The position numbers were made by a program, and so were the translations under genes. 60,720 nucleotides of DNA, taken from assembly GCA_022566515.1 (NCBI GenBank), contig JADFIT010000004.1:1-60720 (forward strand), given 5' to 3'. Below are positions 57,278-60,720 of the stretch, piece by piece. The DNA is from Gemmatimonadota bacterium (GTDB lineage: Bacteria > Gemmatimonadota > Gemmatimonadetes > Gemmatimonadales > GWC2-71-9). The stretch's first letter is position 1, and the number at the start of each line of letters is the position of its first letter. A model generated the notes under the pieces. The model did not search any database. It worked only from the letters and a program-made list of their open reading frames with translations, and had not been told where the DNA came from.

Positions 57278-58957
57278 GTGCAGTTCGAAATCAACTCGGA
57301 TAAATGTGTGGCCTGCCTCGCGTGTGTCCGGGCGTGTCCGGCCGGGGCGGTGGCGGTGGAGGAAACGGACGTTGAGATCATCGACGACGCGTGCATTCAA
57401 TGCGGGGCGTGCGTTCCCGCGTGTCCGCACGACGCCATTGACGTTCGGGGAGACTTTAGCCGAGCGCTGGAGTTGGCCGTCGCGGGCGACGCCATACTGA
57501 TTCTGAGCGTCGAGGCCGAGATCCACTTCTACCCCCACACGCCGGAACAGATGGTGAACGCGTGCTATCGCGCGGGTTTCGGTATTGTCTACCGCGGTGT
57601 CTTGGGCGACGAGTTGGTGGCGGAAGGCTATCAGAGGCTTTGGGAAAAGGGTGGTTGGGGAACGATGATCCGGTCCAGTTGTCCGGTCGTCGTCGAAACC
57701 GTTCGGCGCGAATATCCCGACCTCGTTCCCTATTTGGCTCCTGTTCAAACCCCTGTGCAGGCAGAGGCCGGTTACATTCGGGCTAAACACGGGTCCGATG
57801 TGAAGGTGGTCTACGCCGGCGTCTGTATCACCGAGGGGGGTGAGGCGGTGGATGCGGCCATTACGCTGCATGAACTCGATGAACTGCTTCGCACCCGCCG
57901 GGTGGACGTGGCGAAGGAGGCACCGTTCTTCGACCGGATCCCCGAAGAGCGGAGGCGCCACATCAGTGCGGCGGGTGGGTTGCCCCTGCGGGTGCTGCAG
58001 GAGGAGCGCCACTCCAGCCGCCGATTCCGGAAGCTGCGGGGGCTGGGCCATCTGCCCATGATCGCTCGGGCGGTCACGGTGGACGAGATCGACCTGGGGT
58101 TTGTGGACCTGCTGCCTTGTGAGGGGTGTCTGGACCACCCCCTCCTGGGGCCAGCCGAGGAGTTGTACTACCGGAGGAAGGTGCAGGCGTCTCTGGAGCC
58201 ACCCCGGAGCCCGGAGCCGGTTTTGGAGCCCGACATCGAGGTGGACGTACGGGCCAAGTTCGAAGCGGCGGTCAACGGGCGGGAGAGCGTTGGTGAGGAG
58301 CAGATCGCCGCTGTCATCCAGCGGATCGGGACTGCTCCAGGTGGGCACCATTGGGACTGTGGCGCCTGTGGATTCGGCACCTGCCGCGAGTTCGCCGTGT
58401 CTCAGGTCAAGGGGCGGGCCGACCTCCGGCAATGCCCGCCATATCAGGAGCGAAAGGCTCGGCAAGCCCAGGAGGAGGCCGCGGTGGACGAGCTGACGGG
58501 GCTCGCCACTTTCCGAGTGTTGCGGGACAGTCTGCAGCAGGAGGTGGCGCGAGCGCGCCGGACTGAGGTCTCGTTTGCCGTGCTGTTCATTGATCTGGAC
58601 AACTTCAAAAACGTCAACGACCGGTACGGCCATGAAGAGGGCAACGAGGTGCTGAAGTTGGCGGCCGGGGTCATGGGGAGGACGGTGCGGGGTACTGATA
58701 TGGCGGCCCGCTATGGCGGTGATGAGTTCGTAGTCTTGCTCATCGGGACCGACCTGCATGGCGCCCAGAAGGTGGGGGAGCAGATCCGCCATGCGGTCGA
58801 GATGGCCGGCACGCGAGCCGGATATCCGGCGGGGATGGTGACGGTGTCGATCGGGGCTGCCCAATTCGACCTCAAGGACGACGACCCAGAGGTTCTGCAG
58901 CTTGCGGACAGGTCTTTGTACGAAGCCAAGGGTTCGGGCGGCAACCGGGTTATCTGA
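57278..58957 (+). CDS. Diguanylate cyclase fused to 2x[4Fe-4S] ferredoxin, [FeFe]-hydrogenase-like and Cys-rich FeS domains
   Basis: CVACLACVRACP, CIQCGACVPACP; RSSCPVV, GVC, PCEGC; DCGACGFGTC..CP; DELTGL, DLDNFK.VND.YGH, RGTD, RYGGDEF. Confidence 0.9.
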   Translation: MQFEINSDKCVACLACVRACPAGAVAVEETDVEIIDDACIQCGACVPACPHDAIDVRGDFSRALELAVAGDAILILSVEAEIHFYPHTPEQMVNACYRAGFGIVYRGVLGDELVAEGYQRLWEKGGWGTMIRSSCPVVVETVRREYPDLVPYLAPVQTPVQAEAGYIRAKHGSDVKVVYAGVCITEGGEAVDAAITLHELDELLRTRRVDVAKEAPFFDRIPEERRRHISAAGGLPLRVLQEERHSSRRFRKLRGLGHLPMIARAVTVDEIDLGFVDLLPCEGCLDHPLLGPAEELYYRRKVQASLEPPRSPEPVLEPDIEVDVRAKFEAAVNGRESVGEEQIAAVIQRIGTAPGGHHWDCGACGFGTCREFAVSQVKGRADLRQCPPYQERKARQAQEEAAVDELTGLATFRVLRDSLQQEVARARRTEVSFAVLFIDLDNFKNVNDRYGHEEGNEVLKLAAGVMGRTVRGTDMAARYGGDEFVVLLIGTDLHGAQKVGEQIRHAVEMAGTRAGYPAGMVTVSIGAAQFDLKDDDPEVLQLADRSLYEAKGSGGNRVI

Positions 58958-58997
58958 CCAATTGAACGATGGAAGCATCCAGCCAAGTGGGAGAGAC

Positions 58998-59747
58998 GTG
59001 AAAGCCAAGAAAGACGATCCCGAGCAGGCATCGGCAGGCGAAGCGCAGGTTCCCCTTCGCAAGGCTCAGAGCGAGGCTCAGGCCGATCCTTGGGGGATAA
59101 GGCGGGCGGAGGTGTTGCTGGCCAGCCTCACGGGGGTGCTTTCTGCCAGGGTCGTGACGACACCGACCGGAGAGATTACGGAGGTCCACATACTGACGGA
59201 GGCCGGCCTCACGCCGAAGCAGACGGTGCGCAACGTCGAGAGCGCTCTGCTGGCCCAGCTCGGGATCAAGCTCGATCACCGGAAGATCAGCGTGGCGCAG
59301 ACTGCCGATGTCCTGCCCCTCGAGGCGATGGAAGACCGGGCGGTTCTGGAGAGGGCTAGAAGGCGGGGGGTCGTGTTCCGTAGGGTGGAGGTGACTCCGA
59401 CGAGCACTCAGCATAGGGTGACCGTCACCGTCACCATGGAGCGGGACGGGGAAGAGCTGGTGGCCCAGCAGGAGGCTGGGGACGCCGCCAAGATGCGCCT
59501 GGTGGCGGCCGCCCGGGCGTCTGTATCGATCTTGGACATCATGGTTGCCGGCGGTACCATCGACCTGGCCGGGGCTCAGCTCGTCGAGGCCTTCGACACC
59601 CGTTTGGCGTTCGTTGGGATCCACGTGCTGCAAGGCCGTGATGCCAGGCTACATGTGGGGACGTGTGAGGTGAAGGGGAGCGTGGAGCAGGCAGGGGCCC
59701 TGGCCGTCCTCGACGCGACCAACCGCTGGCTCACCTCGATGCTGTAG
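58998..59747 (+). CDS. Hypothetical cytoplasmic protein
   Basis: Clean ORF with GGGAGAG RBS before GTG 58998; motif-like EVHIL..PKQTVRNVESAL..LDHRKISVAQ and AVLDATNR. Confidence 0.8.
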   Translation: MKAKKDDPEQASAGEAQVPLRKAQSEAQADPWGIRRAEVLLASLTGVLSARVVTTPTGEITEVHILTEAGLTPKQTVRNVESALLAQLGIKLDHRKISVAQTADVLPLEAMEDRAVLERARRRGVVFRRVEVTPTSTQHRVTVTVTMERDGEELVAQQEAGDAAKMRLVAAARASVSILDIMVAGGTIDLAGAQLVEAFDTRLAFVGIHVLQGRDARLHVGTCEVKGSVEQAGALAVLDATNRWLTSML

Positions 59748-59764
59748 CGAAGCTGGACAGCGGT

Positions 59765-59793
59765 TTGACAAAAACGCCATAACTTCCCACATT
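59765..59793 (+). promoter_or_regulatory. Putative sigma70 promoter for the leader / small peptide / sensor unit
   Basis: TTGACA-N17-CACATT. Confidence 0.45.
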
Positions 59794-59796
59794 GGT

Positions 59797-59822
59797 CACC
59801 CCTTACGCGAGGGGTGTTTTCT
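59797..59822 (+). terminator. Intrinsic terminator after the hypothetical gene
   Basis: CACCCCT-tacgcg-AGGGGTG followed by TTTTCT. Confidence 0.55.
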
Positions 59823-59838
59823 AACTACAAGAGTCACA

Positions 59839-60048
59839 GCGTCTTAGCCATCTTCGGGAATGGTTGCGGCGCCTTCAGCGTCTTTACCCTTCTTGAGAAC
59901 AAGGATACTTAAGGAAAAGGGGGTGCCCCGGTTCGGAGTTACCAGCAATAGCGTAGCGGAGCGAATCCAGCTGTAGGAGCGAAGCGTCAGGGTGTGCCGT
60001 AGCGAGGCATGCCACTTCTCGAAACGCCTAGAGGCATGTGAGGAGGTG
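59839..60048 (+). ncRNA. Candidate structured 5' leader RNA (family unknown)
   Basis: Several consecutive stems, including a cUUCGg hairpin and an anti-Shine-Dalgarno pairing. Confidence 0.3.
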
Positions 60049-60054
60049 ACGCTC

Positions 60055-60114
60055 GTGGATTCGATCATTGAGTTCTTGTGCCGTTTGTTTTTGCACGGTA
60101 CCGTTTCCTGGTAA
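60055..60114 (+). CDS. Putative 19-aa peptide MDSIIEFLCRLFLHGTVSW
   Basis: AGGAGGT 7 nt upstream of GTG; TAA at 60112-14; too short for the supplied ORF track. Confidence 0.6.
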   Translation: MDSIIEFLCRLFLHGTVSW

Positions 60115-60147
60115 GCTTCACCGGGGTTTTCTCCCTCTCCCCAAAAC

Positions 60148-60720
60148 GTGAAAATCCGGCCGCCGAGCATCAATTTCTACGTCTTCGCGATGTGTGGTAT
60201 TGCAGCATTCCTGTTGCTGCAAGCCGAGTGGCTGGTGTCGGGAGAACTGTTAAGCGCAGCTGCAACGGTATTGCTCATTGCGGTGGTCTCTGAGGCGGGA
60301 TCAGTTCGACTTGGCCTTGGCACCACCACGAGTTCAATCGCTTTCATTCCATTCTTCGCCGCCATAGTGTTGGTGGGCCCGGCCTGGGCGATGGCTGTTG
60401 GTGGTTTGACGCTATTCATTTCTAGTTTCCTGTTCAAACGAAAGCCCCTCGTGAAGGTGGCGTTCAATACTGCCAAGGAGGTTGTCGCAGTTGGTGCCAG
60501 CGGGGGCATCTACGTATTGCTCGGGGGTGTTCCGTCGCTGGGTGAATTCGCGCCGGCGATCCCTGCGTTCGCTGCGGCGGCGTTGATCTACTTCCCGCTC
60601 GACCAAGGCCTCCCGGCTATTGCAATTGCCCTCAGCACGAAAACGCGGCTGCGGGAAGCTTGGGGTCGGCTGGCTACTGGTCATCAGCTTTTGGATCTGG
60701 GCGCCAGCGCTGTAGCGTTG
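60148..60720 (+). CDS. Polytopic membrane sensor N-terminus (MASE9-like; possibly an HD-GYP or GGDEF protein), truncated by the window edge
   Basis: Open frame from GTG 60148 to the end: ..SSIAFIPFFAAIVLVGP..KRKPLVKVAFNTA..IYVLLGG..; at least 5 TM helices; output domain not in the window. Confidence 0.7.
   Translation, partial: MKIRPPSINFYVFAMCGIAAFLLLQAEWLVSGELLSAAATVLLIAVVSEAGSVRLGLGTTTSSIAFIPFFAAIVLVGPAWAMAVGGLTLFISSFLFKRKPLVKVAFNTAKEVVAVGASGGIYVLLGGVPSLGEFAPAIPAFAAAALIYFPLDQGLPAIAIALSTKTRLREAWGRLATGHQLLDLGASAVAL

Follow-up and report, generated by a model that had tools for sequence, protein, structure and literature searches.

Why would a bacterium place an open reading frame of 19 codons, with a Shine-Dalgarno (SD) sequence of its own, directly in front of a membrane sensor gene that has none? 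The question arises near the right end of the window, by which we mean the whole stretch analysed, 60,720 nucleotides long, which is the entire contig C60 of a 95%-complete Gemmatimonadota genome (G000). We favour, at a probability of roughly 0.6, the reading that the peptide is a membrane-associated, allele-specific partner (ligand or regulatory subunit) of the MASE9 domain of that sensor, tuning its HD-GYP phosphodiesterase, and that it is made from an mRNA switch that couples peptide to sensor. The module is real and undescribed in the literature searched, which did not extend to subscription papers and in which no description of the peptide, its leader, the upstream protein or DUF5317 was found; its mechanism is what we infer. 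Its parts, all on the forward strand, are as follows.

58998-59747, forward: upstream gene, 249 aa, no Pfam family; N-terminal alpha/beta domain and predicted C-terminal LeuA/CimA-type regulatory domain
59797-59816, forward: putative terminator, a hairpin followed by TTTT, after the upstream gene
59918-59932, forward: 5' arm of P0, a long-range stem enclosing leader and peptide ORF
59949-60004, forward: six (G/U/A)AGCG pentamers, starting at 59949, 59954, 59959, 59977, 59982 and 60000
59983-60053, forward: three-way junction (P1, P2, P3) hiding the peptide SD
60041-60047, forward: SD AGGAGGT of the peptide
60055-60114, forward: peptide gene, 19 aa, GTG start; amphipathic helix and variable five-residue tail ending in Trp
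60120-60136, forward: 3' arm of P0, immediately before the SD-less start of the sensor
60148-60720, forward: 5' part of the gene for a predicted MASE9-HD-GYP c-di-GMP phosphodiesterase, cut by the contig end inside MASE9

Is the small ORF a gene at all? The SD lies 7 nt before a start codon at 60055, from which 19 codons, MDSIIEFLCRLFLHGTVSW, run to a TAA stop at 60112-60114. The first-pass annotation had read this arrangement of SD, spacing and ORF at 60041-60114, as well as the polytopic gene 33 nt past the peptide stop, which starts with GTG at 60148 and lacks an SD; both readings are borne out, the one detail to add being that the peptide starts with GTG, not ATG. The peptide had also been called amphipathic, and it is so to a moderate degree, with a mean hydrophobic-moment z of 1.24 against shuffles and a z above 1 in 18 of 29 peptides. 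NCBIfam has no name for any of the four peptides submitted, and a scan of 59700-60250 found no sigma-70-like promoter. Small ORFs of 15-32 aa behind an SD number 195 in the genome, and 11 of these have Trp as one of their last two residues. Taken singly, the feature is thus not rare, and the case rests on comparison.

A sensor search matched in 34 of the 61 genomes of the order, and 31 sensor-bearing Gemmatimonadota loci were compared, 30 of them with upstream DNA present. An SD-led hydrophobic ORF of 19-28 aa directly precedes the sensor in 29 of these 30. Such equivalent ORFs at orthologous loci were one of the things that the first-pass annotation had asked for, and their conservation rules out a chance origin. 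The lone exception (L023) has a frameshifted peptide together with a stop codon within the sensor, a joint breakage that we count for the peptide-sensor pairing and that could be a sequencing error. Trp is the last or second-last residue in 28 of the 29 peptides, and Tyr ends the other. The conserved G..W terminus proposed at first thus holds for its Trp and fails for its Gly: G-x-x-x-W occurs in only 13 of 29, and Asp or Glu replaces the Gly in about 10. Loci anchored on the upstream gene show more of the same arrangement, many ended by contig edges; among the loci listed, three copies of the upstream gene lack leader, peptide and sensor all together. Three distant MASE9 paralogues of the order have no peptide in front. 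As a separate observation, two MASE9-like genes of about 670-700 aa (L217, G051:C9; L218, G013:C94) immediately follow a gene that by eye looks like trpA, with neither peptide nor leader, a possible hint that this type of domain senses something linked to Trp or indole.

What does the peptide gene precede? The 191-aa fragment of the sensor in the window scores 17.7 bits against MASE9 (PF20972), under the cut-off of 24.3, because the contig end cuts it. A full-length relative that is 90% identical (P0002) scores 27.9 bits, over the same cut-off, and carries an HD_5 domain with all five HD-GYP motifs (metal and GYP) intact; full-length relatives of the sensor are MASE9 plus HD-GYP proteins. The MASE9-like domain named in the first reading is thereby confirmed, and by homology the downstream gene encodes a MASE9-HD-GYP phosphodiesterase predicted to hydrolyse c-di-GMP. 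Contig C149 of the same genome opens inside a second sensor allele, 92% identical over 268 nt, with HD-GYP present, and this second allele probably explains the assembly break at the end of the window.

Few c-di-GMP enzymes have a known input, and MASE9 counts as an orphan sensor. Galperin and Chou inferred that MASE9 binds its ligand within the membrane and named no ligand (bioRxiv 10.1101/2021.11.05.467447); in the accessible text of that MASE9-defining preprint the words "peptide" and "upstream" do not occur. Described examples of the architecture are TM1467 of Thermotoga maritima and HdgA of Streptomyces venezuelae (bioRxiv 10.1101/2021.11.05.467447; PMC6205966). HdgA is membrane-bound and weakly expressed and gave no mutant phenotype, and its authors suggested that the activating signal or signals were missing (PMC6205966). 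The sensor studied here shares with these phosphodiesterases the architecture, the intact HD-GYP motifs and a ligand proposed to bind within the membrane; it differs in its surroundings, since the accessible parts of the descriptions make no mention of a peptide, leader RNA, upstream protein or DUF5317.

The module extends well beyond the Gemmatimonadota. Scanning GTDB with the upstream protein gave 518 relatives, and the best 80 loci of these were kept, mostly from Bacillota and also from Armatimonadota, Chloroflexota and Coriobacteriales. The peptide is present in 72 of these 80 (66 by script and 6 by inspection), and four of the remaining loci are cut or gapped. The other-phylum peptides resemble signal peptides, with a cationic N-region, a hydrophobic core and a short tail. 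Lys or Arg in residues 2-6 averages 1.7 in them versus 0.1 in our lineage, and a lipobox-like [LVIA][AS][AGS]G occurs in 65 of 73 versus 3 of 28. In eight Armatimonadota loci (L112, L113, L117, L119, L121, L124, L131 and L136), the peptides have 38-45 aa, with a Pro-rich tail after the signal-like core, and two HD-GYP genes follow the peptide where the locus extends far enough. Selection, which the first-pass annotation had proposed to measure, proves to be purifying on the peptide body: across 19 Desulfosporosinus loci pN/pS is 0.17 for the peptide body and 0.48 for the tail, while in our own lineage it is only about 0.6, from 3-4 sequences with saturated sites.

Sensor-anchored samples from Bacillota and Actinomycetota (the best 30 of each list) contain MASE9 genes without a peptide in front, 5 of 30 and 12 of 30, respectively; MASE9 therefore does not need the peptide in cis. 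Tandem duplicate peptide genes before a single sensor were seen at L194, L204 and L214. At L212 (G372:C22) the sensor is preceded by a degenerate peptide, the upstream gene survives as a remnant and the AGCG repeats are missing, the parts having been lost together.

If the peptide addresses the sensor, which part of it does so? Between two genomes of the same genus as ours, the upstream protein is 85% identical and HD-GYP 87-88%, whereas MASE9 is only 55% identical and is the hypervariable island of the sensor. With HD-GYP distance held fixed, the distance between peptide tails follows that between MASE9 domains in 18 Gemmatimonadota loci (r 0.47, p 0.0005; 7 own-order loci with doubtful starts left out) and in 24 loci of the Desulfosporosinus group (r 0.25, p 0.009); in 82 monoderm loci the relation is slight (r 0.09). 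Tail distance does not track HD-GYP distance (r -0.16 and -0.12 in the first two groups). The tail classes F[KR]W (6 members) and H[KR][LI] (3) form starred clades in the MASE9 tree. A tree of the upstream protein with 24 rows rejects both as clades (p-AU 0.025 and 0.016), and with the HD-GYP tree both remain acceptable (p-AU 0.23); L067, L081, L082 and L097, whose sensors are cut or mis-started, were left out, the classes were defined with a tree already in view, and related loci do not count as independent. The tail also physically adjoins the start of MASE9, and linkage alone gives co-inheritance. For these reasons the comparisons show a shared cassette of tail and MASE9, not to proven co-adaptation. 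A further allele comes from contigs of four RNA-library runs in two marine-sediment studies: among the matches listed, its tail has three first-position changes (T16S, V17I and S18T) and its MASE9 is divergent. These contigs span the whole stretch and cannot show transcription or its level.

Complex prediction of peptide with sensor, also proposed in the first reading, gave weak support through a homologous pair and not through the pair in the window. The natural, Trp-ended, 30-aa homologue from L186 (Actinomycetota) scored 0.38 with its own MASE9, where the best of three controls reached 0.02; contact agreement was at least 62%, partner pLDDT at least 60, and the alignment held about 100 rows for each partner. 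Of 157 solved pairs 116 reach the mark, and of 215 mismatched pairs 2; scores of 0.60 or below account for only 18 of those solved pairs and for both mismatches, so that the modelled L186 complex weakly supports pairing in the family, not for the window's own copy. The peptide-receptor pair put forward by the first-pass annotation thus stands as a candidate, favoured by its conservation across phyla, by purifying selection on the body of the peptide, by tails that follow MASE9 but not HD-GYP and, weakly, by this complex score.

On the preferred reading, the helix would place the peptide in or on the inner membrane, and the last five residues, Trp-ended in this lineage, would carry the specificity that MASE9 reads. 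The peptide would thereby set the activity of the attached HD-GYP c-di-GMP phosphodiesterase, in whichever direction. Tail and MASE9 would vary as a cassette, like the variable core of agr. In the agr system (AgrD, AgrB, AgrC) a small amphipathic precursor is encoded beside a polytopic receptor, and a variable cassette lies between conserved flanks. Our module shares the amphipathic precursor beside a polytopic receptor and, with the linkage caveat, the hypervariable cassette of peptide tail and sensor. There is no homology, however: the predicted output here is c-di-GMP hydrolysis by HD-GYP, not the histidine kinase AgrC; the peptide lacks a ring-forming Cys or Ser and usually a follower peptide; and control would pass through a structured mRNA leader. 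AgrB (PF04647) was not found in G000, in a search whose control genomes also all fell under the cut-off and gave no positive control, and neither was the C39 peptidase of ABC exporters for double-glycine leaders (PF03412), which matches in 7 of 14 controls. MgrB and SafA are small hydrophobic proteins that act in the membrane on a signalling enzyme, PhoQ. Here, the target would be an HD-GYP enzyme, the tail would be allele-specific, and the peptide is encoded on the same mRNA, inside an RNA switch.

That RNA and the upstream LeuA-domain protein were overlooked in the first reading. P1 (59983-59989/60047-60053) joins the last tandem AGCG to the spacer between SD and start, P2 (59991-59998/60006-60013) exposes a further AGCG in its loop, GUAGCGA, and P3 (60015-60021/60039-60045) pairs with the SD itself. 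The fifth pentamer overlaps the 5' strand of P1 and the sixth sits in the P2 loop. Leaders of 170 nt carry a mean of 4.8 pentamers in 28 Gemmatimonadota loci versus 0.29 inside the sensor gene; the figure is 3.6 per leader in other phyla and 2.3 in Actinomycetota. When the junction is fitted to 28 sequences, 87.8% of cells are paired and slid controls reach 36-50%. Two-sided changes occur in 10 of 18 pairs, 7 of them in P2, and none of 500 shuffles scored as high, with the structure derived from one member and a shuffle that ignores relatedness. P1 is nearly invariant in our lineage, where one pair shows a two-sided change, and within Gemmatimonadota or Actinomycetota cognate arms of P1 pair barely better than non-cognate ones. 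From the raw alignment, RNAalifold returned P2 and P3 but not P1 as defined here, and 59930-60160 does not stand out in local fold energy (z -1.44); the claim of a structured RNA therefore rests on covariation. In the four RNA-library runs, a fold-back joint links 59962 to 60064, with 59962-59969 complementary to 60056-60063, a weak hint at folded RNA and possibly a library artefact. Rfam gave no match at E up to 1 in the window at 58900-60720, and none at gathering score in 20 other loci.

The outer stem, P0, encloses leader and peptide ORF alike. Its core at 59926-59932 has pair probabilities of 0.86-1.0; z is below -2 in 18 of 27 loci, and in 18 of 27 the cognate 3' arm comes among the top 3 of 27, that of the window reaching only rank 14. 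A strict Watson-Crick P0 of at least 8 bp is present in 68 of 73 other-phylum loci against 30% for non-cognate arms, and is weak in our lineage (12 of 26 against 21%). An AAAGGA-like purine run lies just 5' of P0, at 59905-59915 and in relatives; P0 would bring it beside the SD-less sensor start, possibly as a split ribosome-binding site. Short intergenic GGGAGCG repeats followed by complementary units (for example on C33, C68, C174, C221 and C228) are unrelated to the leader.

Could the ORF then be mainly a cis-acting upstream ORF, whose translation unfolds P0 and starts the sensor while the peptide itself is incidental or acts on nothing beyond the ribosome or translocon? The first-pass annotation had named a translational leader as its alternative, and much in the RNA agrees with it. 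The whole ORF lies within the conserved RNA domain, the 3' arm covers the initiation region of the sensor, and an SD-like 4-mer precedes only 5 of 27 sensors in Gemmatimonadota. A covariance model of the leader matches in 47 of 61 genomes (once in 45, twice in 2), always at this locus, which is consistent with control in cis. Such a role, however, leaves unexplained both the conserved hydrophobic helix under purifying selection and a tail that tracks MASE9; peptide genes, sometimes in tandem, occur at loci without the AGCG leader (L191, L194, L204 and L210), and 48 of 73 other-phylum sensors have an SD-like 4-mer of their own. As a sufficient account we consider this rather unlikely. The two roles are not exclusive, and since the ORF lies inside a conserved structured RNA and the sensor is usually SD-less, translational coupling probably acts alongside the peptide's role. 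In the combined scheme, folding of the peptide SD would gate expression, P1 would be opened by an AGCG-binding protein and P0 by a ribosome that finishes at the peptide stop, freeing the SD-less start of the sensor and so coupling sensor to peptide. An AGCG regulon was also considered and rejected, the leader being essentially single-copy per genome and its core pattern occurring once in G000.

Do the terminal Trp codon and the repeats instead betray a Trp-sensing attenuator, with ribosomes stalling at that codon or a TRAP-like protein bound to (G/U)AG-NN repeats? In TRAP and HutP attenuation the protein recognises tandem NAG triplets at a 5-nt period, and our leader is similar in having such triplets at that period, overlapping a helix that hides an SD. 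Of the 29 peptides of the order, 28 have Trp last or second-last; in the window, a hairpin and its T run overlap the peptide stop; and distant MASE9-like paralogues lie behind a trpA-like gene in two genomes. Yet 28 of 73 other-phylum peptides lack Trp in their last five residues and keep the same leader; Trp is not universal, which argues against a leader that senses it. Only 12 of 29 loci have a T-rich run after the stop, and the hairpin of the window competes with P0. TRAP (PF02081) was not found in the genome, where the best E of 0.155 is under the cut-off that the Bacillus subtilis control passes. The repeat, moreover, is AGCG in 3-6 copies, one of them in a hairpin loop, with one site per genome, and the candidate binder has a LeuA-type regulatory domain. 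A Trp-sensing leader is thus unlikely, to a high degree.

A small hydrophobic ORF with a hidden SD and long-range pairing also recalls the hok, aapA and fst mRNAs, in which case the peptide would be a type I toxin-like membrane peptide, silenced by 5'-3' pairing and merely linked to the sensor. Its single copy, fixed between two conserved genes across phyla, is at odds with this, as are the lack of a charged C-terminal tail, the co-variation of the tail with MASE9 and the lack of an Rfam match, and we regard a toxin as very improbable.

For the preferred partner of MASE9, which protein would open the switch? The upstream gene adjoins the peptide in 27 of the 29 peptide loci, the other two being cut. 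Its product has a well-scored AlphaFold model (pLDDT 89.8), whose C-terminal part matches LeuA by Foldseek (E 2.4e-6) and 3f6g (VIA) with Z 9.4 and rmsd 3.1 over 109 aligned residues; judging from the model, this part has the LeuA/CimA regulatory-domain fold, and ligand binding is predicted only. The N-domain, 70 residues of alpha/beta structure, has conserved His, Lys and Arg. Its matches, tied at Z about 7.7-9.1, are to CDF C-terminal domains, acyl-CoA ligase subdomains and the BolA-like YrbA. Structure comparison gave this domain no clear RNA-binding fold, and its consensus lacks the GxxG of the KH loop. The family profile found nothing meaningful among PDB sequences, Pfam LeuA_dimer matches only 1 of 87 members, and an Atlas search with the family returned unnamed clusters only.

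Among 19 chosen genomes, all 11 with an AGCG leader encode the upstream protein, often divergently beside the locus. Where the repeats are absent (8 loci), the protein is absent from 6 genomes, four of which look like close kin and for which assembly completeness is not established; of the other two genomes, the first has it beside a second locus that bears the AGCG repeats, and in the second it adjoins a leader with GAGAT repeats instead. From gene content, co-occurrence of the protein with the AGCG leader is suggestive, and we infer that it is most likely the binder of the repeats. In the leader before position 1266 of L160 (G133:C28), P0 and the adjacent upstream gene are kept and GAGAT/GAGAG repeats replace AGCG, a candidate natural specificity variant. 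Two shorter paralogues in our genome (L060 and L061; G000:C170 and C221) consist of the C-terminal LeuA-like domain only, with no leader or peptide behind them.

How might the signal-peptide-like precursors of other phyla mature? A DUF5317 gene lies downstream in 51 of the best 80 other-phylum loci. DUF5317 was found neither in this genome, which has one ordinary LspA, nor in its 60 relatives, which together make up the 61 genomes of the order. DUF5317 and the cationic, lipobox-like precursor thus go together, our lineage being a variant without either. The family has two invariant Asp (D146 and D164) and two Asn, whose spacing we take to be LspA-like. Its model (pLDDT 95.1) places the LspA structures 5dir and 6ryp at ranks 2-3 with Z 5.3 and 5.2, tied with unrelated helical proteins (for 5dir, rmsd 3.1 over 93 aligned residues); Foldseek gave no match at E 0.001, and the profile found nothing meaningful among PDB sequences. 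The predicted peptidase function is a lead. The likeness to lipoprotein signal peptides lies in the cationic N-region and lipobox-like motif of the monoderm peptides; these differ in having no Cys after the box, the fold match of DUF5317 is weak and tied, and the gene was found in none of the 61 genomes of our order. MASE9 and DUF5317 profiles both match in the control genomes of Thermus thermophilus and T. maritima.

Taken at its widest, the module could be an undescribed multi-phylum form of peptide signalling with a c-di-GMP phosphodiesterase as receptor in place of a kinase or transcription factor: a pherotype-like tail would be read by MASE9 within the membrane, DUF5317 would release it as a dedicated aspartic peptidase in monoderms, it would be left uncut or cut otherwise in this diderm lineage, and an RNA-binding switch protein of a new, ligand-regulated class, joining a small alpha/beta domain to a LeuA-type domain for amino acids, would open the AGCG mRNA structure. 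This extended version is tentative, and in its entirety more doubtful than probable. New here are the diderm variant without DUF5317, the link of the AGCG repeats to the upstream protein and the co-variation of tail and MASE9. MASE9 gains a concrete, synthesizable candidate ligand with predicted allele specificity; two uncharacterised families, the upstream LeuA-domain protein and DUF5317, gain testable roles, together with an RNA motif absent from Rfam. With MASE9 matches in T. thermophilus and T. maritima and a known member in S. venezuelae (HdgA), tests are open to laboratory strains. If true, gating of a phosphodiesterase by a peptide in a mostly uncultured diderm phylum would extend peptide signalling past kinases and cytoplasmic regulators.

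The neighbourhood holds further genes of note. Right upstream of the module, 57278-58957 encodes a fusion of ferredoxin, Fe-hydrogenase large-subunit-like, FeS and GGDEF parts, a probable redox-sensing diguanylate cyclase. In all five relatives scanned for it, among L142-L147, a convergent gene for a STAND-type ATPase with TPR repeats, some with BTAD, follows the sensor, and in our genome an ORF of the same size and position lies at 1140-4448 of L148 (G000:C149).
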